Shown: in pieces, positions 36,745-55,800 of the stretch
How the letters are laid out: the number at the start of each line of letters is the position of its first letter
Position numbering within the stretch: position 1 is the first letter of the stretch
NCBI GenBank assembly: GCA_041737125.1
Contig: JBGSSJ010000012.1
Coordinates: forward strand, 2,637-66,636
DNA from: Minisyncoccia bacterium
Lineage (GTDB): Bacteria; Patescibacteriota; Minisyncoccia; Phycocordibacterales; UBA9973
Length of the DNA stretch: 64,000 nt
Reading direction: 5' to 3'
Program-made: the position numbers and the translations under genes
Notes under the pieces: generated by a model
Database searches by the model: none
Told to the model about the DNA's origin: nothing
What the model saw: only the letters and a program-made list of their open reading frames with translations

Positions 36745-39576
36745 CTATACCACGATATTCACCAACCTCCCTTTCACATATATAACCCTCTTTACTTCCC
36801 TACCTTCTATCCATGGCATTATTACCTTGTCTTCTAATGCTTGTTTTTTGATTATTTCTTCATTCATATCTGAGTCTATCATCATCTCTGTACGCACTTT
36901 ACCATTAACTTGAACAACTATTTTGAAATTGCTGTCTATAACTTTCTTCTTATCCCACTTTGGCCACTTCGAGACATGTATGGATTTCTTACTAATCCAA
37001 AGCTCTTCAGTTATATGCGGAGCGAATGGTGAGAGTATCTGCAGAAATAATTCAAAATCTTTCTTTGATATACTTTTCGTCTTCTCTACTTCATTAATGA
37101 AAACCATCATTGCAGATATAGCAGTATTGAAACTCATAGACTCAATATCTTCTGTAACTTTCTTGATTGTTTTATGGAGAAGTGTTTCTAATTCTTTATC
37201 CGTCTTACTTGCAAAACTATTACCACTAATACGCCAAACTTTCTCCAAGAATCTTCTGGAGCCTATAATACTCTCAGTACTCCAGGACACTGCTTGATCG
37301 AATGGCCCTATGAACATCTCATATATACGTAAAGTATCAGCCCCGTATAGCTTTACTATATCTTTCGGGTCAATTGTATTACCTACTGATTTAGACATTT
37401 TTACTCCTCCCTCGGCAAGTATCATGCCATGGGAAGTGCGCTTCATATATGGCTCACTTGTAGGGACAAGCTTCAAATCATATAAGAACTTATGCCAGAA
37501 GCGAGAGTACAGTAAGTGCAGTGTCGTATGCTCCATACCACCGTTATACCAATCTACACCATTCTTCATCCAAGCCCGGAGAGCCTTCTTTGATGCGAGT
37601 TCTTTATTATTCTTCGGATCTGTGTACCTTAGGAAGTACCATGAGCTCCCTGCCCAGTTCGGCATTGTGTCAGTCTCCCTTTTGGCTTTGCCTTTACACT
37701 TTGGGCACTTTGTATTGACCCATTTATGCATGATAGCAAGTGGACTCTCGCCATTATCTGTTGGCACATAAGACTTCACTTTTGGTAAAGTTACCGGTAA
37801 ATCTTTCTCTGGTACAGGGACATAACCGCACTTTTCGCAGTGTATTATAGGTATTGGTTCACCCCAGTACCTCTGACGGGAGAATATCCAATCACGAAGT
37901 TTGTATTTTGTTACAATTTTACCACCAACTGCTTTCGTAATTTCTTTTTGAGCATCTACGTTTGATAAATCATTAAACTTACCGGAATTCACTAATATAC
38001 CTTCGTTTGTATAAGCTTGATCTTTCCCCAACATATTATTCCAGAAAATTACAGCTTCCTCTTTATCGATAATTTTTTCTACTTCTTCTTTAGTAAGCCA
38101 TACTATGTCATGTAAATTCTTCTCATTGTCACTTGTATCTTCTTTCTTTCCATCTATTAATTCAAAATATGCTCCTACTACATTTGCCCATCTATTCTCT
38201 TTTTTGTGAGGTGCATAGAATTGTGCATGAGCTCTACCCAATGTACTTATGAATTTTATATTCTGGTATCCAGTTTCTTCTCTTATTTCACGAGCACCAG
38301 CAATATGAGGATCTTCACCATCAGTTCCACCTATTACGAAAGTCTTCCAATTCTGAGTCTTCCACATTAAGCACAGATACTTATCTTCTGACCAATGCTT
38401 CACTATAGATACAATAGTATCTCTTTTTACAAAAGGTTGATCTTTCCTTATTGCACTCTCACCTTCAGTTGTTATAAAAAGTGGGGCGACAACTTGGCGA
38501 ATCTCTTGATTATATTTCTTCGCAAATAGGAAATCACGTTCATCGTGTGCAGGCACAGCCATAACAGCACCAGTACCATAATTCACCAATACATAATCTG
38601 CAATCCATACAGGTACTTCTTCCCAATTTGCAGGATTTATAGCTTTAATACCTTTCACTTCAACCCCAGTCTTTTCTTTGTCTTCTGCGGTGCGATCGAG
38701 TTCTGACTTTTTCTTTACATCTAAAATATATTTCTCTACTTCATTCCAATTTGAAATTTGTGGTTTCAGTTTATTAACTAATTCATGTTCAGGTGCAAGA
38801 ACAACATAGGTCACACCAAAAAGTGTATCGGCTCTTGTTGTAAATACTTTAATTTTCTCTGGAGAATTTTTTATAGAAAATTCTATTTCACTTCCTTCAC
38901 TCTTCCCTATCCAGTTCCTTTGTTGAATTTTTATCTTCTCTAAATAATCCACATCATCTAGATCTTTATCTAGTCTATCTGCATACTTAGTAATGGCTAG
39001 CATCCATTGCTCTTTCTCCCTCTTCTCTGTATCTCCACCACAGCGCTCACATTTGCCATTTACCACTTCTTCATTGGCAAGGCCTATCTTACAATTCAAG
39101 CACCAGTTTATAAAGGTCTTCGACTTATAAGCCAAACCCTTTTTATACATTTGAAGGAAGATCCACTGTGTCCACTTATAATATTTCGGATCAGTAGTAT
39201 TTACTTCACGTGACCAGTCGAAAGAGAATCCAATGGATTTAAGTTGCTTACGGAACATATCAGTATTCTGTTTGGTTACTTTCTCTGGCTGTATACCTGT
39301 CTTTATTGCGTAATTCTCTGTAGGTAAGCCGAAGGCATCCCAGCCTATTGGGTAGAGAACGTTGTAGCCTTCCATTCTGCGCTTCCTTGAAATTATATCC
39401 ATCGCAGTATTCGAGCGTATGTGGCCCACATGAAGTCCCGCTCCAGATGGGTATGGGAATTCTATAAGTCCGTAGAACCTTTTACCTTTGCCTCCGTTCT
39501 TTGCATGATAAATTTTCTTTTTATCCCAAGCCGCTTGATGTTTCTTTTCAATTTTATTATGGTCGTAGTTTTTCAT
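36745..39576 (-). CDS. leuS: Leucyl-tRNA synthetase with an inserted Nudix-hydrolase-like domain
   Basis: 943 aa; HVGH and KMSKS class I motifs; editing-domain motifs TTRADT and GTGAVMAVPAHDERD; conserved RDWIFSRQRYWGEPIPI. A ~134-aa insertion between the editing domain and the RDW block carries a Nudix box. Confidence 0.85.
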   Translation of the reverse strand: MKNYDHNKIEKKHQAAWDKKKIYHAKNGGKGKRFYGLIEFPYPSGAGLHVGHIRSNTAMDIISRKRRMEGYNVLYPIGWDAFGLPTENYAIKTGIQPEKVTKQNTDMFRKQLKSIGFSFDWSREVNTTDPKYYKWTQWIFLQMYKKGLAYKSKTFINWCLNCKIGLANEEVVNGKCERCGGDTEKREKEQWMLAITKYADRLDKDLDDVDYLEKIKIQQRNWIGKSEGSEIEFSIKNSPEKIKVFTTRADTLFGVTYVVLAPEHELVNKLKPQISNWNEVEKYILDVKKKSELDRTAEDKEKTGVEVKGIKAINPANWEEVPVWIADYVLVNYGTGAVMAVPAHDERDFLFAKKYNQEIRQVVAPLFITTEGESAIRKDQPFVKRDTIVSIVKHWSEDKYLCLMWKTQNWKTFVIGGTDGEDPHIAGAREIREETGYQNIKFISTLGRAHAQFYAPHKKENRWANVVGAYFELIDGKKEDTSDNEKNLHDIVWLTKEEVEKIIDKEEAVIFWNNMLGKDQAYTNEGILVNSGKFNDLSNVDAQKEITKAVGGKIVTKYKLRDWIFSRQRYWGEPIPIIHCEKCGYVPVPEKDLPVTLPKVKSYVPTDNGESPLAIMHKWVNTKCPKCKGKAKRETDTMPNWAGSSWYFLRYTDPKNNKELASKKALRAWMKNGVDWYNGGMEHTTLHLLYSRFWHKFLYDLKLVPTSEPYMKRTSHGMILAEGGVKMSKSVGNTIDPKDIVKLYGADTLRIYEMFIGPFDQAVSWSTESIIGSRRFLEKVWRISGNSFASKTDKELETLLHKTIKKVTEDIESMSFNTAISAMMVFINEVEKTKSISKKDFELFLQILSPFAPHITEELWISKKSIHVSKWPKWDKKKVIDSNFKIVVQVNGKVRTEMMIDSDMNEEIIKKQALEDKVIMPWIEGREVKRVIYVKGRLVNIVV
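38029..38430 (-). other. Nudix-hydrolase-like domain inserted in LeuRS (aa ~383-516); Nudix box at nt ~38263..38331
   Basis: GGTDGEDPHIAGAREIREETGY matches G-x4/5-E-x7-REUxEExGU (Nudix signature with one spacing deviation), flanked by beta-strand-like sequence typical of the Nudix fold. Confidence 0.6.
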
Positions 39577-40185: not shown

Positions 40186-40731
40186 ATGGAACATCTTACG
40201 AAGAAATCCGAAGCAACGCTCGGGCATGCAGCAGCGAATGCTACTAGGTGGATAGGCTCTACCAGATCCCTAATCATCCACACTATCCTATTTGCAGGAG
40301 CTTTTTCTTTAGTATTCTTTGGTTTTGAATTTGATAAAATCCTCCTTGTGGTAACGACTATTGTATCTCTCGAAGCTATATATCTATCTATCTTCATCCA
40401 AATAAGTGTAAACAATCAAGCTAAGCACTTGGAAGAAGTGGCTGAAGATGTCGGTGAAATCCAGGAGGATGTCGAAGGAATTGAGAAAGATATCGATGAG
40501 ATTCAGGAAGACGTGGATGAAATCCAGGAAGATGTGGAAGGTATTGAGAAAGATATCGATGAGATTCAGGAAGACGTGGATGAAATCCAGGAAGATGTAA
40601 GCGAAGAAGATGAGGAAGAAACAATTATAAAACAAGATGAGGCTATGCTCTCTCGCATTGAGAATACACTACAAATACTTATAAAAGATATAGAAGACCT
40701 AAAGAAGCAGCAAGAAAATAAAAACAAGTAA
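40186..40731 (+). CDS. DUF1003-like membrane protein with a C-terminal acidic tandem-repeat/coiled-coil tail
   Basis: 181 aa; two TM helices flanking an SxxxQNRQ-like region (ISVNNQAKH), then EIQEDVEGIEKDIDEIQEDVD repeated. Confidence 0.4.
   Translation: MEHLTKKSEATLGHAAANATRWIGSTRSLIIHTILFAGAFSLVFFGFEFDKILLVVTTIVSLEAIYLSIFIQISVNNQAKHLEEVAEDVGEIQEDVEGIEKDIDEIQEDVDEIQEDVEGIEKDIDEIQEDVDEIQEDVSEEDEEETIIKQDEAMLSRIENTLQILIKDIEDLKKQQENKNK
40456..40600 (+). repeat. 63-bp (21-codon) in-frame tandem repeat, ~2.3 copies, encoding EIQEDVEGIEKDIDEIQEDVD
   Basis: GAAATCCAGGAGGATGTCGAAGGAATTGAGAAAGATATCGATGAGATTCAGGAAGACGTGGAT is repeated with a few synonymous changes. Confidence 0.8.
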
Positions 40732-40754
40732 TTAATTACTTGTTTTTATTTTAT

Positions 40755-41342
40755 CTAATTTTGTTCTAAATTTATTTCTACCTGTCCTTGGCGAAGTATT
40801 TCTACTTTGCCATTCGAGAGCCTTATCAAGGTCGACGGCTTGGCTATACGCGTACTATCATTCACATACAAATCAATATTCTCTCCGAAGTAGCTCTCTG
40901 CCTCTCTTATATTTCGAGCAGGCTCGAGACCTTGCGGATTCGCACTAGGAGCTACAAGTGAGCCTACAGTATTTATAAGGTTGAACAAATCTTCATTCTT
41001 CGCATCTACCATGCGCACTGCTAGAGTATTCCTCCCTCTGTGCAAATAGAACAATGCATCATCATTACTATCAAGTACTACACTCACCTTATCTGGCCAT
41101 ATAGTCTCGAGTATTTTCCTATCTTCTTCACTTAGTTCTACTCCAAGTTTAGTTAAATGTTCATATGAACTTATGAGTACTATGCAAGGCTTATCTGTAT
41201 CACGACCGCGTACTTGGTACAGCTTCTCTACGGCACCCTCATCAAGAGCGCTTGCAAGTACTCCATAAATAGTGTCGGTCAGTGCGACGACTAATCCTCC
41301 ACCTTTTATGACATCTATTGCTTGTATCCAATTACTTTTCAT
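40755..41342 (-). CDS. tsaC: L-threonylcarbamoyladenylate synthase (TsaC/YrdC/Sua5 family)
   Basis: 195 aa; YrdC fold motifs (GGLVVALTDTIYGV, KPCIVLISS, GSLVAPSANP). Confidence 0.75.
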   Translation of the reverse strand: MKSNWIQAIDVIKGGGLVVALTDTIYGVLASALDEGAVEKLYQVRGRDTDKPCIVLISSYEHLTKLGVELSEEDRKILETIWPDKVSVVLDSNDDALFYLHRGRNTLAVRMVDAKNEDLFNLINTVGSLVAPSANPQGLEPARNIREAESYFGENIDLYVNDSTRIAKPSTLIRLSNGKVEILRQGQVEINLEQN

Positions 41343-41351
41343 AAATTTATA

Positions 41352-41729
41352 TTAAGAACTTATAGCAGACAGAGCATTTACTTTCGCTGCTACGATGAAG
41401 TCATTATGGGAAAGCCCACCTATAGCATGAGTAGATAGTACGACGCTCACATTCTTATAATCTGTCAGGTGTATATCTGGATGGTGGCCTTCCTGCTCGG
41501 CAATAGCGCCAACTTTGTCGACGAAATCAAGCGCTTCCTTGAAGTCCGCGAATGCATAATGCTTCTCTATACTATCCCCATCTTTCGACACTTCATAACC
41601 TTCCACTTCTTTTATTAATAAATCCACCTCCTCTTTTATCAGAGGTGCTACCCCACCCTCACACGCTATACACTTTTGTTCTGTTAGATTCATGTACTTA
41701 TTATATACGTAAAGAGTCTTATTTGACAA
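41352..41729 (-). CDS. Pterin-4-alpha-carbinolamine dehydratase (PCD/DCoH)
   Basis: 125 aa; conserved EGHHPD active-site motif. Confidence 0.75.
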   Translation of the reverse strand: MSNKTLYVYNKYMNLTEQKCIACEGGVAPLIKEEVDLLIKEVEGYEVSKDGDSIEKHYAFADFKEALDFVDKVGAIAEQEGHHPDIHLTDYKNVSVVLSTHAIGGLSHNDFIVAAKVNALSAISS

Positions 41730-41769
41730 GGTTATTTATATGTATTAGAATATACACGAACATATGTTC
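41723..41769 (+). promoter_or_regulatory. Near-consensus sigma-70 promoter (TTGACA-17 bp-TAGAAT) with a perfect 12-bp palindrome GAACATATGTTC at the predicted start site, upstream of the sigma-factor gene
   Basis: -35 TTGACA at 41723..41728; -10 TAGAAT at 41746..41751; palindrome at 41758..41769; a small GC hairpin (GCCCG-TGTAC-CGGGC) sits just before the ATG. Confidence 0.45.
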
Positions 41770-41808
41770 ATCTAACAATTCTAAAACGCCCGTGTACCGG
41801 GCTAGGTT

Positions 41809-42672
41809 ATGAGGCAATTAAAAATCGGAACCAAGATTACGAATCGGGATTCGCAGGCAGTAGAAAAGTATCTTCAGGAAATTTCCAAAATCGGCATGAT
41901 CACGCCCGAAGAGGAAACCATTTTGGCCCAACGGATCAAAATGGGTGATCAGCGTGCTTTGGAGCGCCTGACAGCAGCTAACCTTCGTTTTGTGGTCTCC
42001 GTAGCAAAACAGTATCAGCACCAAGGTTTAGCCTTAAGTGACTTGATAAATGAAGGCAACCTGGGACTAATAAAAGCAGCACAGCGCTTTGATGAAACCA
42101 AGGGTTTCAAATTCATCTCCTACGCTGTGTGGTGGATTCGCCAATCAATTTTGCAGGCTTTGGCAGAGCAAGGACGACTTGTTCGCATTCCTCAAAATAA
42201 AATTGGGGTGTATAACAAGGCAAATAGAGCCTACGCAGTTTTCGAACAAGACCATGAACGCGAACCTTCCACTGAAGAACTCGCTGAAATTCTCGAAATG
42301 AGCGAAACCGAAATCAACAACATTTTCCAGAGTAACATCCATCACAAAAGCCTAGATGCAACAGCTGAAGGTGCGCCAGAAGATGCTGGTACTCCTGGTG
42401 ATTTGTTGGAGGCGAGCGAGGACACTGATGACGACATTATGAAGGATTCGCTCCGCGAAGAAATCCGCCTGGTGCTGAAATCCCTCAGCCCTCGCGAAGC
42501 CGAAATTGTTTATGCTTACTTTGGGCTCGATGGCGAAAATGGTGTAACCATTGAGCAGATTGGTCAGAAGTACGATCTTACTAAAGAACGTATCCGCCAA
42601 ATCAAAGAACGGGCAATCAAACGCCTGCAAAAAGCACGTTACAGTAACTCGCTTAAAGCCTACCTCGGGTAG
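41809..42672 (+). CDS. rpoD: RNA polymerase primary sigma factor, short Bacteroidetes-type sigma-A form (regions 1.2, 2, 3, 4 only)
   Basis: 287 aa; starts MRQLKIGTKITNRDSQAVEKYLQEI and ends LKAYLG; region 2 DLINEGNLGLIKAAQRFDETKGFKFISYAVWWIRQ; region 4 HTH. From memory of flavobacterial SigA sequences, the length and both termini match the Bacteroidetes primary sigma factor. GC ~45% versus ~36% flanks. Confidence 0.8.
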   Translation: MRQLKIGTKITNRDSQAVEKYLQEISKIGMITPEEETILAQRIKMGDQRALERLTAANLRFVVSVAKQYQHQGLALSDLINEGNLGLIKAAQRFDETKGFKFISYAVWWIRQSILQALAEQGRLVRIPQNKIGVYNKANRAYAVFEQDHEREPSTEELAEILEMSETEINNIFQSNIHHKSLDATAEGAPEDAGTPGDLLEASEDTDDDIMKDSLREEIRLVLKSLSPREAEIVYAYFGLDGENGVTIEQIGQKYDLTKERIRQIKERAIKRLQKARYSNSLKAYLG

Positions 42673-42759
42673 TAAGCGAAAAATAAAAACCCAAATCTAA
42701 AAACAAATTGCAATGGCTAGACTCAAAAAGTCCGGCCATTTAATTTGCCTAATTTTTTA

Positions 42760-43512
42760 TTAAACTTTCGCTATATTCGCAACTATCGCCTTATGATCAC
42801 TCACACCTTCTACTAATTTCACATTTGTAATTTGATACTGTGGAGTGCTGAAGAGTCCGTCCACCACATATAGTGCTTCACGACTACGGACATCAGGACC
42901 CTTGTGCAAGTTAGCATCTAGAGTCGAATCATATTCAAGGGGAATATTATCTTTATATTTATTTGCAAACATTGCAAATGTCTCACGTCCGCGTGGAGCA
43001 TTGAAGTCGCCACAGAGAATGAGATCATCGAACTGCGAAAGTATACCTAGCAACTTCTGTGCTTGTTCTAACTGGAATGAAGTAGGTGTACCTTTATGAC
43101 TTACAGCTAAGTGCGTATTTGCTATGCGATACATCTTGCCCTCTATCATCATCTCTGACCATAACACGAGCTGATTAGATACATGAGAAGCAATCAACAG
43201 ATCAGCCGAACGCACCCAATTAGGGATATTATCCTCCGTTCCGTTGTAATACTCAGAATGCGATACACTTTCGAAACGTGTAAAGATAGCAATGCCTTGA
43301 GTATGAGTTGTCTCCCCTTTTGTCCGAGGTGATGGGTGAATGGACATCGGTTTGAAAGTTCCTTTCATTCCTAGAGCCTCTTCAAAGCGAGGTATGTCTA
43401 CATCGTATATTTCCTGGAAGCAAACTACGTCGGGCTTCTCAGACACAAGAAAAGGCACTATTCTCTCATAGTGCATATCCATTTCTATATTTAGTGAAAT
43501 AAATTTAATCAT
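42760..43512 (-). CDS. Endonuclease/exonuclease/phosphatase (EEP) family protein
   Basis: 250 aa; N-terminal (V)CFQE and C-terminal GDFN and SDHKA motifs typical of the EEP fold. Confidence 0.65.
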   Translation of the reverse strand: MIKFISLNIEMDMHYERIVPFLVSEKPDVVCFQEIYDVDIPRFEEALGMKGTFKPMSIHPSPRTKGETTHTQGIAIFTRFESVSHSEYYNGTEDNIPNWVRSADLLIASHVSNQLVLWSEMMIEGKMYRIANTHLAVSHKGTPTSFQLEQAQKLLGILSQFDDLILCGDFNAPRGRETFAMFANKYKDNIPLEYDSTLDANLHKGPDVRSREALYVVDGLFSTPQYQITNVKLVEGVSDHKAIVANIAKV

Positions 43513-44625
43513 TTATATTTTAAATTCTATAACGTCTCCGTCTTTGACTATATAATCCTTCCCTTCTGTACGCACTTTCCCTTTTGCACGTGCATCAGCA
43601 TAGCTACCTGCATCGAGCAGATCCTGGAAGTACACTACTTCTGCACGTATGAACTTATCCTTGAAGTCTGTATGTATAGCCATACCAGCGACTGGTGCAG
43701 TACTTCCATGCTTGATAGTCCATGCACGAGTCTCATCCTCACCTGTAGTGAAATATGTATCGAGTCCGAGTAATTTGTAGCCCTCTTTGATAAGGCTATC
43801 TATGCCATCATCCTGCCCTCCCAATTCCTTCCTGAAGACTTCCTTCTCTTCCCCTTCGAAATCTTTCAGCTCTTCTTCTATCTTCGCATCGAGCACCACA
43901 TAGCGTGAACCCATGCTCATTATGTAGTCAGTAAGTTCTTTGAATATTTCTGGATTAGTCTCATCCAAGTTCTTTGATCCACCTCTTTTGTTTAGTCCGT
44001 AGATGAAAGGTTTGAGTGTCAGCAAGTTCAGCATTTTCACTTTCTCAAGTTCGACTTCTTCGAAGCTGACAGTGTTCGCAAGCTTACCTGCCTCAAACGC
44101 AGCTTCGAGCTTTACAAGTGCATTGTTCTCGATGACGGCTTCCTTGTCGCCCTTCTTTATCTCACGTACCAAATTATTCTTCCTTTTGATAACAGTTTCA
44201 AGGTCGGCAAGTATAAGCTCGAGGTTGATTACTTCTATATCACGAAGCGGATCTATATCGCCATAAACATGGATGACTTCATTGCCACCTTCGCTCTTCA
44301 GTGGGAATATGCGCACCATCTCGAGTATCGCATCTACTTCGCGGATATTGGATAAGAATTTATTCCCCAAGCCTTCGCCAGCCGAAGCTCCCTTCACAAG
44401 CCCTGCGATATCCACGAACTCTATCACAGGAGGAATGGTCTTCCTCGAGTTTGAGAATTCAGACAAGTTCCATATACGCTCATCAGGCACAGGAACAATA
44501 CCCACGGATGGGTCGATAGTACAGAATGGGTAATTCTCCGCAGGAACACCCTTCTTCGTCAAAGCATTAAAAAGCGTCGATTTCCCGACATTTGGTAGAC
44601 CTACAATTCCAATAGATAGTGACAT
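43513..44625 (-). CDS. ychF: Ribosome-binding ATPase YchF (Obg-like)
   Basis: 370 aa; G1 GLPNVGKST, the YchF hallmark NYPFCTIDP, and a C-terminal TGS domain. Confidence 0.9.
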   Translation of the reverse strand: MSLSIGIVGLPNVGKSTLFNALTKKGVPAENYPFCTIDPSVGIVPVPDERIWNLSEFSNSRKTIPPVIEFVDIAGLVKGASAGEGLGNKFLSNIREVDAILEMVRIFPLKSEGGNEVIHVYGDIDPLRDIEVINLELILADLETVIKRKNNLVREIKKGDKEAVIENNALVKLEAAFEAGKLANTVSFEEVELEKVKMLNLLTLKPFIYGLNKRGGSKNLDETNPEIFKELTDYIMSMGSRYVVLDAKIEEELKDFEGEEKEVFRKELGGQDDGIDSLIKEGYKLLGLDTYFTTGEDETRAWTIKHGSTAPVAGMAIHTDFKDKFIRAEVVYFQDLLDAGSYADARAKGKVRTEGKDYIVKDGDVIEFKI

Positions 44626-44681
44626 ACTTAAAATATAGCAGAAAAAAGGAATATTTCAAAAAAATATTATTCTCCTATATA

Positions 44682-46178
44682 TTATATGGACTTAATTTGT
44701 TCTTTCTTGTGATCTTCGATAGCTTTATCTACTTCATCTAGATCACCTTCTATGGCTTCTTTAATTTCTTTTTCTTCTTTGGATAGAATGCGAGTATGGC
44801 GAGTATTTTGTAATATTTCCAGATGTTTCTCTAGGCGCTTTTTTAACAAAAGAAGTATTTTTGAATGGTCACCTCTAACAAGAGCACTGCGAACTATAAT
44901 TTTCTTGTGGAGCCTATCATATTGACGTCCGAGCTTAAATGCACCAATAATCAAAACTATTACTAGTACGATAATTAAATATATTACAGGCACATCAACT
45001 GCCAACATGTTGATAGTGTATGGATCCTTCGCAGGTGCAAGTGGTTGTAATGGTTGTACTTGCTCTACTGGTGCGATAGTTGCAGTGAAAATTCCAACTG
45101 ATTCCACACTGTTACCTGCGCGATCAAATGCTACTAATTTCACAGTATGGTTCCCCGCTATACTATAAGGAAGGCTGTAGTTGCCATCAACAAAATCTGC
45201 ATAATCCACCTTCTTTACCAATACATCATTTATGTAAATTTCATAATAATCTAATCCTGAAGTTTCATCTATGATATCAGCATTTATGTTGAGGACTTTC
45301 TTAGTATCATCATAGATAAAGGTAACATCATTCTTCTTCGGAATAGTAGTATCTATTCTTGCTATATATGTACTAGTCGGACCCCATTTCCCATCTTTCT
45401 GTGCGCGTACTTTGAAGTACCAAATTCCATCTTTCAAGTTTTTCACAGACCTTTCGCTTGTTGCAGGGCTTATTGTCACGCGAGGAACACCCGCAATATT
45501 ACTATCAATACCTGTTTGTACAGAAGTTATCCCTGTTGGTAATTTCCATTTGAATATTGGATTATTATCCTTATACCACAATTCCTGAGATGGATGAGTG
45601 AGTGATGTCACATTTAATGTGATGAGTGATGGTTGTGGTGCGGGTACGTCAGCAACAACCGGCTCCTCCTTTTGCACTATAGAGAGAGTCTTGCCTGTTT
45701 TACTATTTAAGACATCAGTACCAAACCCATCATCCGCACGAACAGCAGAGTCAGAGAAGATTAAGTCAGCCTGGCCAGCTTTCTTTGCTTTCACAACGAA
45801 AGAGAGTGCAGTGCCACTTGAGCCATTGAATCCCGGAGTAGGGATACCTCCATTGAAAGTAATAATTCCACTAACATTCGAATATGCAGGCTCCTCTACC
45901 CACAAGGAGAATACTGAGCCTCCTTTATTTATAGATACTACCTCAAGTAAATCACTTGGATATATAATTTTCGCTTCGGCATTATTGATCGGTACACCTT
46001 CTGAATTTATCACTACTGATAGTGTCGTTATACCTCCAGGCGAAAGACTGGTCGAAGAAGAATTAATTTTAAGTGTAGCCGCGTCTACAGTACTTGATAC
46101 AAAGAATGAAATAAGTAGCAGGCAAAAGAATGCTAATTTAGTTTTTAGTAGATTTTTTATATCCATAGAAGATCCCAC
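44682..46178 (-). CDS. Secreted, C-terminally membrane-anchored protein with an N-terminal cohesin-like domain, beta-sandwich repeats and a cytoplasmic coiled-coil tail
   Basis: 498 aa; signal peptide; N-terminal ~140 aa (TLKINSSS...GGITTLSVVINSEGVPINNAEAKIIYPSDLLEVV...SLWVEEPAY) is paralogous to the upstream 219-aa protein; TM VIYLIIVLVIVLIIGAF near the C-terminus; overlaps the upstream gene by 41 nt. Confidence 0.45.
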   Translation of the reverse strand: MGSSMDIKNLLKTKLAFFCLLLISFFVSSTVDAATLKINSSSTSLSPGGITTLSVVINSEGVPINNAEAKIIYPSDLLEVVSINKGGSVFSLWVEEPAYSNVSGIITFNGGIPTPGFNGSSGTALSFVVKAKKAGQADLIFSDSAVRADDGFGTDVLNSKTGKTLSIVQKEEPVVADVPAPQPSLITLNVTSLTHPSQELWYKDNNPIFKWKLPTGITSVQTGIDSNIAGVPRVTISPATSERSVKNLKDGIWYFKVRAQKDGKWGPTSTYIARIDTTIPKKNDVTFIYDDTKKVLNINADIIDETSGLDYYEIYINDVLVKKVDYADFVDGNYSLPYSIAGNHTVKLVAFDRAGNSVESVGIFTATIAPVEQVQPLQPLAPAKDPYTINMLAVDVPVIYLIIVLVIVLIIGAFKLGRQYDRLHKKIIVRSALVRGDHSKILLLLKKRLEKHLEILQNTRHTRILSKEEKEIKEAIEGDLDEVDKAIEDHKKEQIKSI

Positions 46179-46797
46179 CCAACAAAATAATTACTAATAA
46201 TATTATAACATTGTTATTCATACTAAATCCAGGGAAAATTGTCTTCTCTTCTGTCGGTTCTTCTATTTTACCATCAACTTCTTCTGTAGTAATTTGTGAA
46301 TCTTTTACCACAAGATTTAAAGACATCGATTTTACTATAGTTGATTCTTCTGTCCCCTTTCCATCATTTAAATATGTCTTCACTCCACTCCATGTCATGT
46401 CTATATTACCTGACACTGCAGTACGTAGGTGTAAGGTCAAAACGAGGCCTTCTTTTGCGAGTCCCTCAGGAGTACCACCTACAAAACGAACCGTCTTTCC
46501 CTTCGAATTATATACTGGTTCTACCGGCCACATAGAGAGAGCTGAGCCTTGTTTACTTACTTCTACTGACAAGGAGTCGGCAATAGAGCCTTGTAGAGAC
46601 ACAGTTCCTTCGATAACATTTAAATTCTTCCCTTGTGGATCTATACGTACCTCTACCACTGTTGTAGTATCCCCATCTTTGCTAGTAGGTACCACTTTAT
46701 AGCTTAGTTGGGCTGCCAGTAAATCCTGTGGTACTACGCACAACAAAAAGCTGATTATAAATGCGTATGCTATATGTGATGAGAATATTTTATACAT
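46138..46797 (-). CDS. Secreted, C-terminally membrane-anchored protein with a cohesin-like domain
   Basis: 219 aa; signal peptide; ~130-aa beta-rich domain (KVVPTS...VVEVRIDPQGKNLNVIEGTVSLQGSIADSLSVEV...SMWPVEPVY); Glu/Thr linker; C-terminal TM VIILLVIILLGGIFYGY; begins 7 nt after the giant gene stop. Confidence 0.45.
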   Translation of the reverse strand: MYKIFSSHIAYAFIISFLLCVVPQDLLAAQLSYKVVPTSKDGDTTTVVEVRIDPQGKNLNVIEGTVSLQGSIADSLSVEVSKQGSALSMWPVEPVYNSKGKTVRFVGGTPEGLAKEGLVLTLHLRTAVSGNIDMTWSGVKTYLNDGKGTEESTIVKSMSLNLVVKDSQITTEEVDGKIEEPTEEKTIFPGFSMNNNVIILLVIILLGGIFYGYKKSTKN

Positions 46798-46803
46798 AAT
46801 TAA

Positions 46804-49800
46804 TTATTGTTTTTTAAAGGCGATAGGTTTCTTGCCCCATTGATAAAGAAGGATAGAAAAGTCGACTGAATTTACTTGTTTGTCTAGATTTATATCAGCA
46901 CAAGGGTTATTAAATGGGGATGTTGTTTTCCAGAAAGAAAGCATTATAGAGAAGTCTACTGAATTTACTTTTCCATCATGGTTTAAGTCTGCACCAATAC
47001 ATGCATTCGTTAAAATAGGTGCTACAGATGCCCCACCTCCACCACCTCCCCCTCCACCAGGCGGTGTGACTGAAGTATCGGTACTCGCTGCAAATGACTG
47101 AGATGCAGTTGAGGAATCTGATCCGAACAATACATCCAAATGGAAGTAATAATCACCAGCAATAGGTACAGTCGAGTTCAATGTTGTATCAAAATTTTCT
47201 AATGGCTGAATTAATTTCGCCGCAGTAGAACTAAATATATCATTCCCTCCTCCGCATGTATTGAGTACTGAATCAGTAACACACCATGTGTATTGATATT
47301 CATATGCAGTAGATCCTTCATTCGTAATACGAACTGCAGTAGATATACTTGGAACAATCAAATCAGTAAAGCTCTGAATCAATACTTGCGCAGGAGATCC
47401 AGGAGTACCACTTACTTCACCTGAAGCGACACTCGTGCCAATAATATTTTTCGCATATACTCGGAAATCATACGAGTTATTATTCGCAAGTCCTGTAACT
47501 GTAACAGAAGGAGTAGTACTTACACTATCAGCAAATACAGTCCATGTACCCAATGTCGTAAGTTTATATTCTATAACATAATCAGTTATCGCAGAGCCTC
47601 CATTGGAAAGTGGTGCTGACCAAGACAAGCTTACACTACTATCATCAATGATTGCTGCTAAGTTAGTCGGCGCCCCTGGGACACTCGCAGGAGTTACTCC
47701 AGAACTTGATCCAGAAGACACACCCGTACCGAGAGCATTTGTAGCAGTGACACTAAATGTATAAGTGACTCCATTCGTAAGCCCTGTGAATATTGCAGTC
47801 GTTGTCGCGCTTGTCATTGTAGCGCCGCCTGGACTTGCCGTAATAGTATATGAAGTTATCGGTGAGCCGCCATTTGAAGCTGGAGCAGACCAAGACACAA
47901 TAACGCTCGTATCCGCTGCTTCACCAGCTACGTTCGTAGGAGCTCCTGGAACAGTTGCAGGAGTTACGGAATTACTTGCACTAGATGCAACACTTGTCCC
48001 AACTGCATTAGTTGCAGTGAAAGTGAATGTATATGTCACTCCATTTGTAAGTCCTGTCACAGTGATCGGTGAAGTACCTCCAGTTGCAGTATGTCCACCA
48101 ATGTTTGAAGTAATAGTATACGAAGTGACTGCTGATCCTCCATTGTTCACTGGAGGTGTGAATGTAATAGTTGCTTCGCCATTCCCAGCAACTGCAGTTA
48201 TGCTTGTAGGCGCATCAGGTACAGTCGCAGGCACAATTGAGTTACTTGTTCCTGAAGAAGTACTTGTTCCCATAATATTTGTTGCAGTCACAGTGAATGT
48301 ATAGGTTGTACCATTAGTAAGTCCTGTGACTGTGATTGGTGAACTACCTCCAGTAGCAGTATGACCTCCAACATTTGAAGTGACTGTGTATGAAGTTATC
48401 GCAGATCCACCGTTATTTACTGGAGGTGTGAATGTGATAGTAGCTTCACCATTACCTCGAACTGCAGTTATAGATGTCGGTGCATCCGGAACAGTCGCCG
48501 GAGTTACAGAATTAGTTGTCGCTGAAGCAATTCCTGTACCCACACTATTCGTCGCAGTCACAGTAAATGTATATGTCACTCCATTTGTAAGTCCTGTGAC
48601 TGTGATTGGTGAACTACCTCCAGTTGCAGTATGACCTAAGTTTGAAGTAACTGTATAGATTGTTATGGCAGAGCCGCCATTTGAAGATGGAGCAGTGAAT
48701 GTAATTGTTGCTTGTCCATTACCTGCTGTTGCAGTACCGATAGTAGGAGCTCCTGGTACACTGACCGGAGTTACTGAATTACTAGAACTTGATGCAACAC
48801 TAGTCCCCACATCATTTGTGGCAGTCACTGTGAATGTATATGTCACTCCATTCGTAAGTCCGACAACTACCAAAGGAGATGACCCTCCTGTTGCTGTATG
48901 ACCAAGGTTTGAAGTTACTGTGTAGCTTGTGATTGCTGATCCGCCATTATTTACTGGGGGTGTAAATGTGATAACTGCTTCGCCATTGCCCGCTGTTGCA
49001 GTCCCTATAATAGGAGCATCAGGAACTGTAGCTGGAGTAATAGTATTACTTGGATCTGAAGCGACACTAGTACCTACCGCATTTGTCGCAGTCACTGTAA
49101 ATGTATACGAGACACTATTTGTAAGCCCCGTGACTGTAATTGGAGAGCCGTTACTTGTTGCAGTAAATCCTCCAGGACTTGAAGTCACTGTATAACTTGT
49201 GATTGTAGATCCGCCATTATTCACAGGAGGTGTAAATGTAATTGTCGCTTCACCATTACCCCTGACTGCAATTATAGAAGTAGGTGCGTCAGGAACAGTC
49301 GCCGGAGTTACTGCATTACTTGCAGTTGATGCAACACTCGTGCCTACGGCATTGGTTGCAGTCACAGTAAATGTATATGCGACTCCGTTAGTAAGTCCTG
49401 TGACTACAAGTGGTGAACTACCACCTGTAGTAAAGTGTCCTCCAATACTTGAGGTCACTGTGTATGAAGTTATTGCAGATCCGCCATTTGATATAGGTGC
49501 GTCAAATGTGATAGTTGCTTGTCCATTACTAGAAACTGCAACTATATTTGTCGGTGCATCTGGAACAGTCGCCGGAGTTACAGCGTTGGTCGTGCCTGAA
49601 GCAACACTTGTACCATTTGCATTTGTGGCAGTCACAGTGAACGTGTACGTTGTACCGTTTGTAAGTCCAGTGATTGTTATCGGAGATGTCCCACCACTTG
49701 TAGTAAATCCTCCCGGACTTGAAGTGACTGTGTAGCTTGTAATTACAGAACCACCATTATTTACTGGAGGTGTGAATGTGATAGTTGCTTGACCGTTACC

Positions 49801-52800
49801 CGCTGTTGCAGTGCCTATGATAGGTGCGTCCGGAATCGTTGAAGGAACCACACTATTACTTGTAGCAGATGAGGCACCTGTTCCTGCACTATTCGTAGCA
49901 GTCACTGTAAATGTATACGTTACTCCGTTTGTAAGACCTGTGACTGTGATTGGTGAAGTACCTCCGGTTGCAGTGTGACCAAGATTTGAAGTAACTGTGT
50001 ATGAAGTTACCACAGACCCTCCATTATTTAATGGAGGTGTGAATGTAATAACTGCTTCGCCATTGCCTCCAGTTGCTGTACCTATTGTAGGTGCATCTGG
50101 AACTGTTGCAGGAGTTACAGCATTGGTTGTCGCAGAGGCAACGCTTGTACCATTTGCATTTGTTGCGGTCACAGTAAATGTGTATGAAGTACCGTTTGTA
50201 AGTCCGGTTACCGTGATTGGTGACGTACCTCCTGTAGCAGTGTGTCCAAGATTTGAAGTAACTGTGTAGCTTGTGATTGCAGAGCCACCATTATTTACTG
50301 GAGGTGTGAATGTAATAGTTGCTTGACCATTACCTGGTGTGGCAGTACCAATGATCGGGGCATCTGGAATAGTTTGATAACTAAAGTAAGGATACGATGA
50401 TGCTTCATCGATGGACCAAATAAGTGAAGTGAAATCCCATCCGACAAAAGTAGCTTCTTCTTTCATTTCTGTACTAGTCTTCCCCGTTATCCCAGCTGGA
50501 TCAACACCATTTCCGACACCGTCCCCAGTTGCATATCCTGATGTTGTTGTGTCCCAATAATTTGAAACATATGTCCCTCCAAGTGGATTCCCAGTTACTC
50601 CACCAGTGTACTGAAGTGAAGCTGCACCTGCTGCGCCCGTTCCACCTGTTGAACCTCCAGATCCGCCTACTCCAGCACTTCCGCCTGTACCACCTGTCGC
50701 ACCGTTTGTTTTCGTTCCAGATGGTGCTCCTGTTGCATATGTATTAGTAATAATTGTCGTATTATGACTTCCTAATAGTCCACCCACATACGCAGACCCT
50801 CCTGCACCACCGGCACCACCGGCACCACCATTTCCATTTACTCCAAGTGCTCCTCCTCCTTGAGCGCCTCCTGCGCCGCCCACTCCACCAACACCACCCA
50901 CTCCTGGAGTACCCCCAATTGCAGTAATAGACCCACGCTGGTAGGCATTTGTAATCGCTCCCGTATTTTGCCCGACTAATCCTCCGACAAACACAGCATC
51001 ACCCGCACCTCCTGCACCACCGGCTCCACCGATTGTTCCATTTCCACCATTTCCAGAAACACCTGATCCACCAGCACCTCCTTCACCGCCAGTACCTCCG
51101 ACTGCTCCCGCTGCACCCACACCACCTGTTACTAAAATATTTCCTGATGCATAACTTGTATTAAAATTCCCAGTAGTGATATTCGCTCCCACAAGTCCAC
51201 CCACATAACTTGCGCCAGAAGCACCACCAGCACCTCCTCCTATTGATGCTCCTCCTGCACCACCTGCAAGTGTTCCTCCATTTCCTCCTCTTCCTCCTGC
51301 GCCAGATGCCCCAGCACTTCCACCGTTTCCACCAACAGTAGTGACGTCGCCGGCTGACCAAGAAAATTGAATAATGCCGGCTGTAAAATTATATCCAACG
51401 AGTCCTCCGGCATACAAAGCTCCACCTGCGCCTCCTGCAGCCGTAGTACCACTTCCGCCACCTGCGCCTCCTGCGCCAGAGACACCACCGGTTCCCCCAT
51501 TTCCACTCAATCCTGCAGCCCCACCCACGCCACCAGTGGCTCCATTTACGCTAACATCTCCTAATGCATAGGTAGTATACAATGTTCCAATATTGTATCC
51601 TGCAAATCCTCCACCGTACGTGATACCTCCTGCAGCACCAACAGTTCTTGCACCTGAAGCTCCACCGGTACCACCAGTACCAGAGACATCTCCTGCTCCA
51701 CCTGTCCCACCATTTCCTCCCGCACCACCGACACCTCCTGTGCCCCCTACAAGAGTGAGCGATCCTGTAGAGTAAGAATCCTTAATCGTTCGTGCGGTAT
51801 TATTGAATCCAGTAAATCCTCCACCATAAGCAAGACCTGCGGCACCAGCTGCCCCACCGTTTCCAGCTACTCCACCGACACCTCCGTTGCCACTTACACC
51901 AACTGACCCAGAGGCACCATTGCCTCCAGTTCCACCAGCTCCTCCGGTGCCAGTAATACCGACAACATTACTTGTTGTATATGAAGAGAGAAAAATATTT
52001 CCATCGTTATACCCGACAAATCCACCAGCATACATAACACCTGATGCGCCACCTGCTCCACCTACCCAACCTATGCCACCAGCACTTGATGGGCTTGATA
52101 CTCCTCCATTTCCACCAATTCCACCATTGCCTCCATTCCCGCTTGTTGATGAGACCGTAGTACCAAGCGAATAACTAGTAAGAATTGTATTTGTCGTATT
52201 GACATTAAATCCTGCTAGTCCTCCAGAAGCTGAGACTCCACCTCCACCTGCGGGACCTCCGGCCCCACCAGTTCCTCCTATGTGTGAAGTTCCAAGCGAA
52301 CCATTTCCTCCAGTACCACCATTTGATCCATGTGCTCCATTACCCCCGATCGCAGTCACAGAACCAGTTGCATATGAATTTAAAATAATTCCTGTTGCCG
52401 CATTATTTCCGACAAGTCCACCAGCATACCCCAAACCACCTGCAGCACCACTCCCCCCTGCGCCTCCTGTCGCAGCTGTACCACCAGAGACTGTACTACT
52501 TGCCCCACCCGAAGCTCCATTACTTGATACTCCGGCATTCCCTCCGATAGAAGAGACAGCACCTGTTGCATAAGAACTTCCTTCTATAATTCCTGTATTA
52601 TTTCCGATCAATCCACCAGCATAGCTTGCGCCTCCTGTACCTGCGGTACCACCGGCTCCTCCTACTCCTCCGAGCGCACCAGATCCTGCAATTCCTCCAG
52701 CAACACTTGTAGCTGCATTACCACCTGTACCTCCTGTCGATGTAACATTACGCGTAGCATAACTTGTAGTAATAGTAACAGTACTTCCTAGCTGAGCAAT

Positions 52801-55800
52801 TAATCCTCCTGCGTAAGAAACTCCTCCTGCACCACCTGCACCAGCTGCGACACTCGCTCCTCCTGCACCACCAGCACCACCAGCACCAGGAATCCCAGAG
52901 GCTCTTCCATTTCCACCAAGTCCGCCAAACGACTCCACTGTATTGCCAGTCGAATATGCATGGAAATAATTACTTCCTCCTCCTGCCGCCATATTACTAT
53001 ACCCCACAAGTCCTCCAGCATTTGATTCACCTCCTATACCTCCTGACCCACCTGCACCAGAGGCACCACCTGCTGCACTTGTTGCGCCGTTTGCTCCATT
53101 TCCTCCGATATTTCCTGTACTTCCTGTGCCCCCAGTACTACTAACATTTCCTGTTGCATATGAATTAATAATGTCACTAAGTCCAGCACCTATTCTATTA
53201 TTTCCGATCAATCCACCAGCATAACTTGCACCTCCCACTGCACCAACCACAGCGCCACCACCTGTGCCACCTGCTACTGTTGATCGTGATGCGCCACCGT
53301 TCCCTGATATTCCTGAAATTCCAGCTGTTCCTCCAGTAGAGGAAACATTTCCTGTTGCATATGTATCTAAATAATTACTTGCACCGGTCGTGAAGTTACT
53401 GAAACCTACGAGCCCTCCAGCATTTGCTTCACCTCCGACACCAGCTAATCCTGCCAATGCACCAGGCGCACCTGCATGAGTACTTGTTCCTAGAGAACCA
53501 TCTCCACCATTGCCACCAAGACCTCCATTTCCCCCGAGCCCACCAACAACAGTGATGCTTCCTGTTGCATACGAATCACTAATTCGTACTATTTGTGTTG
53601 TTCCAGTCATACGACCAACAAGTCCTCCTCCGTATGCTAGCCCACCAGCTCCACCTGCGCCACCTGCTCCACCGAGTGCAGAGACTCCACTTGAAATAGT
53701 ACTACCAGAAGTACCTCCAGTCCCCCCATTACCACCAGTTCCGCCAGTACCAGCAGTTGCAGAAAAAGAAATTGACGAATAAGAATTATCTCGAATAATT
53801 CCGAGATTGTCTCCCACCAATCCTCCTACTGCTCGTACACCACCTGTACCACCAATACCTCCAAGAGCTCCAACTCCGCCATTAAATGCCCCTACACCAC
53901 TTCCTCCATTACCACCATTTCCGCCTGTTCCACCACTTTGTTCAAAACCTGAAATAGAAATCAGTGTTGAATATGAGTCTGATACTGCACCTGTTGATGT
54001 GCTTGATCCTAAAAGTCCTCCAATAAATGATCCTTGTGAAGCTCCACCTGCGCCGCCTGCACCACCTGCGCCACCTGCTCCACCTGTTGCCAATCCTGAA
54101 CCTCCATCCCCTCCATTACCTCCATTACCAGGAGTTCCGCCTGTCACCACAATATTACCTGCGCCGGATCCACTATCGACGGTTGCATGCGAAGAAATGA
54201 CATCAGACGTTGTGGATCCAACAAGACCCCCTGCATGAATTATACTTGATTGGTTTCCAGCACCACCAGCACTTCCTGCTGTTCCAGAGTTGATACTTGC
54301 ACTTATTCCATGTGCACCATTGCCTCCATTTCCTCCAGTAATATTGAGAGTTGTTTTTGAGTATGAGTTTGCTTGAATAATTCCAGTGCTATATCCTACT
54401 AATCCTCCAACATAGATACCTCCACCAAAACTTCCTACACCACCTGTTCCATTTAATCCATCAAGCGCTGTGCCCGTACCAATACCACCAATACCACCTA
54501 GAGCACCATGCCCCGCAGAACCACCCACCACTACGATAGTTCCTGTTTCTGCATATGATGAGGTAATTGTTCCTAAACTACTTTGCCCTACAAGTCCTCC
54601 TACGTGCAATGCCGTAGAGGCGGTTGTCGCACCTGAACCACCAGCACCACCATTTCCTGCAACACCTCCGATATGATTCGTACCAAGAGATCCATCACCG
54701 CCATTTCCGCCCTGTCCTCCGTTCCCGCCATTACCTCCTGTTCCTGTCATACTGACTGTCGCATAGGAACTATTAATAATTCCATTTGCTGTGTTGTTTC
54801 TTCCTACTAATCCTCCCAGTGAAAGACTTCCCCCTACGCCTCCTGCTCCACCGATACCACCAGCTGCAGCAGTTCCATTTGTTATAGCTCCAGAAGCACC
54901 AGCAGCGCCTCCTATTCCACCATTTCCTCCAGCTCCTGAAACCGCAACGAGAGATCCTGTTGTATGATAACTTGTTTCAATTCCAATAGAAGAATCCCCT
55001 ACTAATCCTCCTGTAAAGTTTGCACCACCTGCACCACCTATAGCTCCTGCACCACCTGCACCACCTATAGCAGCTCCTCCTCCAGATCCTCCTGAGCCTC
55101 CATTACCACCCGTTCCCCCTATACCAGATGTACCAGAAACAGTATTACTAGAGTATGCATTAATTATCTCACCTATATTTGAAAATCCGACAAGTCCTCC
55201 TGCATACGAGGCGCCTCCAACACCACCAACTCCTCCTATAGCTCCTGCTCCACCGACAGAATTATTTCCACCTACACCGCCTGATCCTGCATTTCCTCCT
55301 GCACCTGCATTTCCTGCACTTGCCATCACTGTACCTGTGGCATATGAATTATCAATATATGCATTTGTTGTAGTAAATCCGATAAGTCCTCCACTATACG
55401 CAGAGCCGCCAGTACCACCGGCTCCACCTACTGCTCCTGCTCCACCAAATATATTATTTATAGTTCCGTCACCACCATTTCCACCACTTGCACCATCCCC
55501 CCCCGTAGCTCCATTTACAGTAACTGAACCTGTTGCATATGAATTTCTTACTACGTATCCAGCACCGGCATTATATCCGACAAGTCCTCCACCATATATT
55601 GCATTACCAGATCCTCCGGCTCCTCCTGCTCCTCCAATAGAACCATTAGCACCTGATGTTCCGGTCGTTCCATTAGCTGCGACTCCACCATTTGCAACGA
55701 CATCATTTGTAGAATGTACAGTATCAATAAGAACATTACTAAGGGAGACATACCCTACAGCACCTCCTGCATGAACTGCACCTGTTACCCACCCAGCACC

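Follow-up and report, generated by a model that had tools for sequence, protein, structure and literature searches.

A 64,000-nucleotide stretch of a Minisyncoccia bacterium assembly (GCA_041737125.1, contig JBGSSJ010000012.1, positions 2,637 to 66,636; the whole stretch is referred to here as the window) carries, at 41809..42672 of its plus strand, a gene for a primary-type sigma factor of the Bacteroidota (sigma-A). We conclude that this gene represents a genuine cross-phylum horizontal gene transfer (HGT) of a Bacteroidota sigma-A into the chromosome of a member of the Candidate Phyla Radiation (CPR; Patescibacteria), and not an assembly error. The analysis established the physical linkage of the gene to host DNA, its foreign origin, its derived state, host-type expression signals, and a non-uniform constraint on the encoded protein. 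Regarding function, we consider it probable (approximately 60%), on the basis of sequence comparisons, that a real transfer provided a functional accessory sigma factor.

Primary-type sigma factors are informational genes that make extensive contacts with the core polymerase and set the promoter language of a genome, and they are expected to resist cross-phylum transfer. The Bacteroidota sigma-A is a textbook case of a phylum-specific promoter language. Horizontally acquired genes are a general phenomenon in CPR/Patescibacteria epibionts. The present gene resembles such genes (i.e., one foreign gene that occupies a variable slot in a streamlined genome and shows signs of having been partly domesticated) but differs from them in being a central informational gene. 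What is unusual here is the combination of recipient and gene class, i.e., a CPR genome that recently received a housekeeping-type sigma factor from another phylum. A full-text literature search on horizontal transfer of sigma factors in Patescibacteria returned nothing relevant, as judged from titles and the beginnings of abstracts.

Sigma-A family membership and donor clade

The open reading frame (ORF) encodes 287 amino acids. The protein starts with MRQLKIGTKITNRD (N-terminus MRQLKI) and ends with NSLKAYLG (C-terminus LKAYLG). Pfam domains were detected at residues 18 to 48 (Sigma70_r1_2), 56 to 123 (r2), 136 to 206 (r3), and 222 to 275 (r4). All four models (PF00140, PF04542, PF04539, and PF04545) exceeded their gathering scores, indicating a four-region sigma-70 factor of groups 1/2. 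Over its full length, the protein aligned with the last ~270 residues of SigA/RpoD chains of solved structure, the alignments beginning at chain residue ~100 to 340, and it thus lacks region 1.1 and the non-conserved insert. The NCBIfam RpoD, SigA, and RpoS models gave strong matches, all under the equivalog cutoff. An assignment to MzaA, the sigma factor of the MZA anti-phage system, was rejected: the NCBIfam score was 246 bits versus a cutoff of 800, the 726-position profile was matched by the C-terminal 240 residues only, and the long N-terminal extension of that protein is missing.

A short length (~285 to 290 amino acids) without region 1.1 or the non-conserved insert is a hallmark of Bacteroidota sigma-A, and the window protein falls within this range. 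The absence of region 1.1 from this family is described in PMC12632263. The same paper cites Vingadassalom et al. 2005 for Bacteroides fragilis sigma-ABfr, which the window protein resembles in its size (~287 amino acids), in having regions 1.2 to 4.2, and in lacking region 1.1. The likeness to Bacteroidota sigma-A extends to both termini, to the sequence identity with Chitinophagaceae members, and to regions 2 and 4, which are essentially of consensus sequence. An earlier note on this DNA, made from the letters alone, had proposed the architecture, termini, and length of a Bacteroidetes sigma-A; this proposal was confirmed.

We searched a database of 5.8 billion proteins for homologues. The 119 best non-self matches were about 80 to 86% identical to the sigma protein, and those that carried an organism name were all from Bacteroidota, mostly Chitinophagaceae. 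Named sigA matches at 81 to 86% identity came from Taibaiella, Edaphocola, Thermoflavifilum, and a "Chitinophagaceae bacterium." Full-length representatives of the other 50%-identity clusters were at most ~61% identical. In a neighbor-joining (NJ) tree, the protein was nested 19 nodes deep inside the Chitinophagaceae-like sigma-A radiation. Similarity search and phylogeny, i.e., the checks that the earlier note had proposed for its Bacteroidetes assignment, thus placed the protein among Chitinophagaceae sigma-A and not with the host lineage. A phage vector was considered and rejected, the best sigma homologues on IMG/VR viral contigs being only 38 to 53% identical.

The nearest six homologues for which contig data existed were P0002, P0005, P0008, P0012, P0028, and P0031. 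The order (AIR synthase [AIRS] or LGT)-sigA-DUF4249-trxB-folB was found in all six loci, with DUF4249 missing in one of them (L084), and some donor-clade loci also had LpxK and a type IX secretion system (T9SS)-tail protein nearby. None of this neighborhood surrounds the window gene, which has a pterin-4a-carbinolamine dehydratase (PCD) gene on one side and an endonuclease/exonuclease/phosphatase family (EEP) gene followed by ychF on the other. Such an absence is expected of a transferred copy. Unlike its Bacteroidota counterparts, the window copy therefore resides in a Patescibacteria chromosome, outside the sigA-DUF4249-trxB-folB neighborhood. On the basis of architecture, termini, identity, and phylogenetic position, the protein belongs without peculiarity to the sigma-A family of the Bacteroidota, differing only in the donor-clade synteny, and the gene is of Bacteroidota origin with a Chitinophagales-like donor.

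The composition of the gene deviates from that of its surroundings. The GC content was 46.2% (46.9% at third codon positions [GC3]), versus 39.7% for the window (37.5% without a giant gene at 46804-61854) and 37.5% and 39.7% for the 5-kb flanks. Among the 41 window genes, the sigma gene ranked first in GC3 (z = 2.2), and its codon usage agreed least well with that of the remaining window genes (z = -2.5). The gene and the host differed in the shares of CGC (50% versus 19%) and AGA (5% versus 29%) among Arg codons, CTG among Leu codons (18% versus 5%), ACC among Thr codons (38% versus 7%), and ATA among Ile codons (8% versus 48%). The neighboring ychF had a GC3 of 45%. The compositional deviation is genuine yet moderate (absolute z, 2.2 to 2.5). 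The earlier note had described a gene of ~45% GC with G/C-ending codons such as CGC and CTG in a ~36% background; the codon preference and the higher GC content stood, whereas the contrast had been slightly overstated.

Junctions and the replaced slot

The sigma gene is the sole plus-strand gene between minus-strand PCD (41352..41693) and minus-strand EEP (42760..43512), and the ORF calls thus agree with the earlier description of a lone plus-strand gene. PCD (Pfam Pterin_4a) is the first gene of a PCD-sua5 operon, and EEP (Pfam Exo_endo_phos) directly abuts ychF (43513..44625). Both are native flanks. The best named matches of PCD were from Patescibacteria/Parcubacteria (58 to 70%) and those of EEP from Patescibacteria/Paceibacterota (45 to 58%; 82% for the protein of a relative, L100, described below), with Taylorbacteria also among the best named matches of these genes. 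A larger Bacteroidota island was considered and rejected, given that PCD and EEP are of Patescibacteria type and that the donor flanks are absent.

The earlier note had offered HGT and a chimeric or contaminated contig as alternatives, the continuity across the two junctions being one way to distinguish them. Through exact-protein look-ups of the flanking genes, we retrieved two Logan contigs (L098 and L099) from a separate assembly of run SRR28170474. L098 is 100% identical to window positions 40723-41874 (i.e., sua5, PCD, the intergenic region, and 66 nt at the start of the sigma gene), and L099 is 100% identical to 42303-46221 (i.e., 370 nt at the end of the sigma gene, EEP, ychF, and the beginning of the next gene). 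Because each contig crosses one junction, both ends of the sigma gene are joined to Patescibacteria DNA in this second assembly as well.

Some features of these data speak for a Bacteroidota fragment misjoined into a Patescibacteria contig or count against a transfer. The composition and codon usage are foreign, the arrangement is absent from any second sample, and the Logan contigs end within the gene (at 41874 and 42303), possibly because the assembly graph branches at k-mers that also occur in Bacteroidota sigA genes of the sample. A 428-nt stretch in the middle of the gene (41875-42302) lies outside both Logan contigs and is found in the NCBI assembly only. Moreover, these contigs were probably built from the reads that underlie the deposited assembly, so that they are a check on the assembler but not on the sample. 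Against such a misjoin, besides the two junctions reproduced at 100% identity, the insert consists of exactly one complete gene with a host-type promoter and a terminator, placed between genes that are neighbors in relatives, and the conserved Bacteroidota flanks (LGT/AIRS and DUF4249) were not carried along. The protein differs from its 119 Bacteroidota relatives by 15 unique changes at conserved columns and two unique 1-residue insertions. Furthermore, GC3 is even along the gene (45.5%, 45.5%, and 48.4%), across the segments covered by Logan contigs and the uncovered central 428 nt alike. We therefore regard a chimera or contamination as essentially excluded and its probability as very small, while the transfer is supported by the phylogeny, the junctions, and the relatives.

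We compared the locus with two relatives, L100 (JGI 3300033569) and L101 (GCA_040384045.1). L100 is ~84% identical to the window at the nucleotide level on both sides of the slot. L101 is more divergent (YchF, 88%; leucyl-tRNA synthetase [LeuRS], 67% amino-acid identity) and is colinear with the window in the order ychF-EEP-[118-aa gene]-PCD-sua5-DUF948-...-leuS-TPR-murJ. In L100, the slot, delimited by the stop codon of EEP and the start of PCD, is 1,291 bp long and contains genes for a 136-aa hypothetical protein (hyp136) and a LysE transporter; the 118-aa product in L101 (hyp118) is homologous to hyp136 (E = 3e-16). In the window, the slot is occupied by a cassette of 1,067 bp (41697..42763; promoter, sigma gene, and terminator) that has no homology to L100 or L101. 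In a blastn comparison with L100, homology ceased at 41696 and resumed at 42764, and in the boundary alignments the shared backbone reached precisely to the stop codon of EEP and the ATG of PCD. The cassette contains no remnants of hyp136, hyp118, or LysE, no direct or inverted repeats flank it, and no integrase is present in the slot. In more distant relatives, ychF directly adjoins sua5. Given that the relatives keep the backbone with a different occupant, the sigma cassette is a derived, lineage-specific replacement in a variable slot.

A mobile element in the slot was considered and rejected: flanking repeats and an integrase are lacking, and the serine-recombinase element of L101 sits upstream of ychF and not in the slot. 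This mobile-element-like block (L101, 4816-8950) lies immediately upstream of ychF and encodes an AAA_25 ATPase, an HTH_17 protein, and a large serine recombinase. The ychF neighborhood may be a recurrent integration region in this clade.

Promoter signals, constraint, and role of the sigma factor

In PMC12632263 and PMC9723704, Bacteroidota sigma-A is described as recognizing -33 TTTG / -7 TAnnTTTG (TAnnTTTGY) promoters. The window shows a different pattern. A TATAAT-like box, often preceded by TGn and ending 6 to 12 nt before the ATG, was present in 10 of 18 window upstream regions, a number reached in none of 2,000 shuffles. Such TATAAT/TGnTATAAT boxes precede, among others, the genes starting at 16325, 28875, 40142, 40186, 41693, 44625, 61854, and 61977, and the operon starts that carry them have no Shine-Dalgarno sequence. 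Because the boxes end 6 to 12 nt before the start codons, we infer that the host uses canonical -10 or extended -10 leaderless promoters, which would imply largely leaderless transcripts in this Patescibacteria lineage. TAnnTTTG was not enriched in the window (74 matches versus 62 ± 7.7 expected).

The sigma gene itself is preceded by TTGACA (41723-41728) and, after 17 nt, TAGAAT (41746-41751) on the plus strand, a promoter (41723..41751) with 11 of 12 consensus matches and a leader of ~50 nt, unlike the host operon starts. Back to back with it on the minus strand is the divergent leaderless PCD-sua5 promoter (41700..41729; TTGTCA, 18 nt, TATAAT; 11 of 12 matches), with 6 nt between its -10 box and the PCD ATG at 41693. 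Upstream regions of Chitinophagales sigA genes contain TAnnTTTG boxes and a conserved AACTTAcCCTTTGCAAC element. Neither was found upstream of the window sigma gene, where there was no similarity to the donor upstream regions, and the donor-like part is thus the coding sequence only. The consensus promoter that the earlier note had attributed to the gene is present, but it is a host-type sigma-70 promoter (TTGACA/TAGAAT) and not the TAnnTTTG type of Bacteroidota sigma-A genes. Downstream, a probable bidirectional terminator hairpin (42704..42747; minimum free energy, -18.4 kcal/mol; z = -3.3 versus shuffles), with T-rich runs on both sides, lies between the convergent sigma and EEP genes. A hairpin in the 5' leader of the sigma gene was not significant (z = -1.3).

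At the predicted transcription start, 7 nt after the -10 box, we found a perfect 12-bp palindrome, GAACATATGTTC (41758..41769), which is a candidate operator and the only GAAC-N4-GTTC in the window. Its context, CGAACATATGTTCA (41757-41770), fits the Gram-positive (Firmicutes/Actinobacteria-type) LexA consensus, GAAC-N4-GTTC, and the palindrome resembles a LexA/Cheo box. A similar 16-bp palindrome, CCGAACAAATGTTCGG, occurs in the relative L005 (8838-8853), 28 nt upstream of a UDG-family gene. The recA promoters of two Parcubacteria loci that are more distant, L053 (~14510-14570) and L054 (~14690-14750), share a palindrome, GTGATATAATATCAC, that overlaps the -10 box and differs from GAACATATGTTC; it is a candidate LexA operator of another type. 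The lexA promoter of L060 contained no box of the GAAC-N4-GTTC kind.

The sigma protein has a long branch and an uneven distribution of changes. In the NJ tree, its terminal branch was 0.11 substitutions/site, ~18 times the median of 0.006 for the 119 nearest relatives. Nucleotide identity to the nearest available genes was 72 to 75% with saturated synonymous sites, and the nonsynonymous distance (dN) was 0.10 to 0.12, versus 0.03 to 0.07 among the Bacteroidota genes; given that the synonymous distance (dS) was saturated relative to every available DNA homologue, dN/dS on the terminal branch is not computable. Overall, the protein has 37 differences from the consensus. At columns conserved in at least 97% of the 119 nearest homologues, changes were found in none of 9 columns at the N-terminus, none of 10 in region 1.2, none of 64 in region 2, and 1 of 38 in region 4, whereas 5 of 30 were changed in region 3.0-3.1 and 9 of 25, including two unique 1-residue insertions, in region 3.2/linker. 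Region 3 thus accounts for 14 changes in 55 conserved columns (Fisher test versus the rest, p = 1.4e-7). The 15 unique changes at conserved columns are absent from the 119 nearest Bacteroidota sequences, except for E148D, which occurs in one of them. Alignment with solved SigA chains places the region 3.2 cluster in the sigma finger, at residues 178 to 202, the element that extends into the core enzyme, and the remodeled finger, with its nine conserved-position changes, sets the protein apart from Bacteroidota sigma-A. Because regions 1.2, 2, and 4 are nearly unchanged, the core-binding and promoter-recognition regions are under strong purifying selection and are still of Bacteroidota type. 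With regions 2 and 4 conserved in this way, we infer that the factor keeps the promoter specificity of the Bacteroidota.

These signals bear on whether the acquired factor has displaced the native primary sigma and now serves as the housekeeping sigma. Such a displacement would account for the lack of a second sigma-70 gene in the 64-kb window, for the housekeeping nature of the donor family, and for the strong constraint on the core-binding and DNA-binding regions. However, the host operons start with TATAAT/TGnTATAAT boxes at leaderless spacing, the sigma gene itself lies behind TTGACA-17-TAGAAT, and regions 2.4 and 4.2 have kept the sequence of Bacteroidota proteins, for which the promoter consensus is a different one (-33/-7). 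The acquisition is also younger than the split from the ~84%-identity relatives, i.e., too recent for a genome-wide turnover of promoters. With leaderless host promoters of the TATAAT type in the window, the gene probably does not encode the host housekeeping sigma, and we consider a displacement quite improbable.

A transient or neutral passenger deserves more weight, although we consider it unlikely. In that case, the transfer would be real, but the protein would form no productive holoenzyme or find no target promoters, and the gene would be heading to loss. Several observations favor a passenger and detract from a functional factor. The protein is a singleton at the 90% level, no sister genome carrying the sigma gene having been sampled, and the slot is variable among relatives. 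The terminal branch is long, dN is two- to threefold higher than among the Bacteroidota genes, and otherwise invariant residues are changed (e.g., R178H, P185T, and R221L); the excess of substitutions in region 3 could reflect relaxed constraint instead of adaptation. Promoters of the TAnnTTTG type were not detected in the window, no gene in the 64 kb having a good TTTG-N19-21-TAnnTTTG upstream. On the other hand, the ORF is intact, and 0 to 1 changes in the 112 highly conserved columns of regions 1.2, 2, and 4.2 are far from uniform decay. Synonymous sites are saturated while dN is only ~0.1, and the presence of an 11-of-12 host-type promoter and a terminator in place of the donor upstream DNA suggests domestication.

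We therefore favor an acquired accessory factor, for which the following course may be proposed. In a Paceibacteria-type CPR chromosome, the small gene or genes found in relatives between ychF-EEP and PCD-sua5-...-leuS were exchanged for the 1.07-kb sigma cassette. The canonical holoenzyme of the host would transcribe the sigma gene, possibly under a repressor acting at the palindrome, and the native canonical housekeeping sigma would be encoded outside the window. The acquired protein would associate with the core polymerase of the CPR bacterium and guide it to -33 TTTG / -7 TAnnTTTG promoters. It is most likely an additional factor and not the housekeeping one, having retained the Bacteroidota regions 1.2, 2, and 4 with a remodeled region 3.0-3.2.

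Such a factor would resemble group 2 sigmas (e.g., RpoS, cyanobacterial SigB-E, and actinobacterial HrdA-D), with which it shares a four-region, near-primary architecture. As in that group, the cell would have a housekeeping sigma besides, and the additional factor would redirect the core enzyme that both share. Group 2 sigmas, however, are within-lineage duplicates with a near-housekeeping promoter consensus, whereas the window protein is a recent cross-phylum xenologue with an expected -33/-7 specificity.

A more specific version of the accessory factor assumes a Chitinophagales host, on or with which the CPR bacterium would live and whose housekeeping sigma it would have captured as a "promoter-compatibility" device for host-derived DNA. 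Expression of the sigma gene, possibly triggered by DNA damage through the LexA-like operator, would then allow the CPR polymerase to read Bacteroidota-type promoters on other host-acquired DNA, and the remodeled sigma finger would be an adaptation of the foreign sigma to the CPR core enzyme. We regard this version as speculative and rather improbable. If true, the gene would be an innovation in function and would also point, at the molecular level, to the host of this Paceibacteria lineage.

Irrespective of this version, the gene may hint at Chitinophagales as an ecological partner of this uncultured Paceibacteria lineage, and it offers a natural experiment on sigma-core compatibility across phyla and on the reading of foreign promoters after gene transfer. 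A practical point is that a compositionally odd informational gene in a metagenome-assembled genome (MAG) is not necessarily contamination.

Host chromosome and other features of the window

The window is an ordinary housekeeping segment of a Paceibacteria-type Patescibacteria (CPR) chromosome. The genome loci closest in YchF were from Patescibacteria MAGs, the top one (77%) being a Candidatus Paceibacterota MAG; MAGs deposited under the name "uncultured Candidatus Saccharibacteria" (69 to 75%) and a Nomurabacteria MAG (68%) came next. The best matches of LeuRS were also from Patescibacteria. The window genes include mraZ-mraW, a penicillin-binding protein gene, four genes for Mur-type ligases, greA, and genes for three aminoacyl-tRNA synthetases, as well as tsaD, adk, lepA, murJ, phoH, and three tRNAs.

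LeuRS (36745-39576, minus strand) has a NUDIX hydrolase domain (residues ~395 to 500) inserted after the editing domain, as does its L101 counterpart. In related Patescibacteria (e.g., L045, 14797-15852; L040, 14524-15576; and L010, 18037-19068), leuS is directly followed by a gene whose conserved product (~345 aa) combines a sigma-70 region 4 helix-turn-helix (HTH) at the N-terminus with a HARE-HTH domain at the C-terminus but lacks region 2. We ruled out this protein as a sigma factor because region 2 is absent. In the window, the position after leuS is occupied by a TPR protein, with no homologue of the region 4/HARE-HTH protein.

The giant gene at 46804-61854 (minus strand) encodes 5,016 amino acids with a signal peptide and an acidic N-terminal region. 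Its N-terminal 2,285 residues had no Pfam match. The protein is 26% Gly and has repeats of the GGxGG/GLVGY type, and two dockerin-like DxNxDGKVNSVDF motifs are present at the C-terminus. The GC content of 48 to 53% and the GC skew of approximately -0.4 at 51 to 60 kb of the window are due to this glycine-rich gene.

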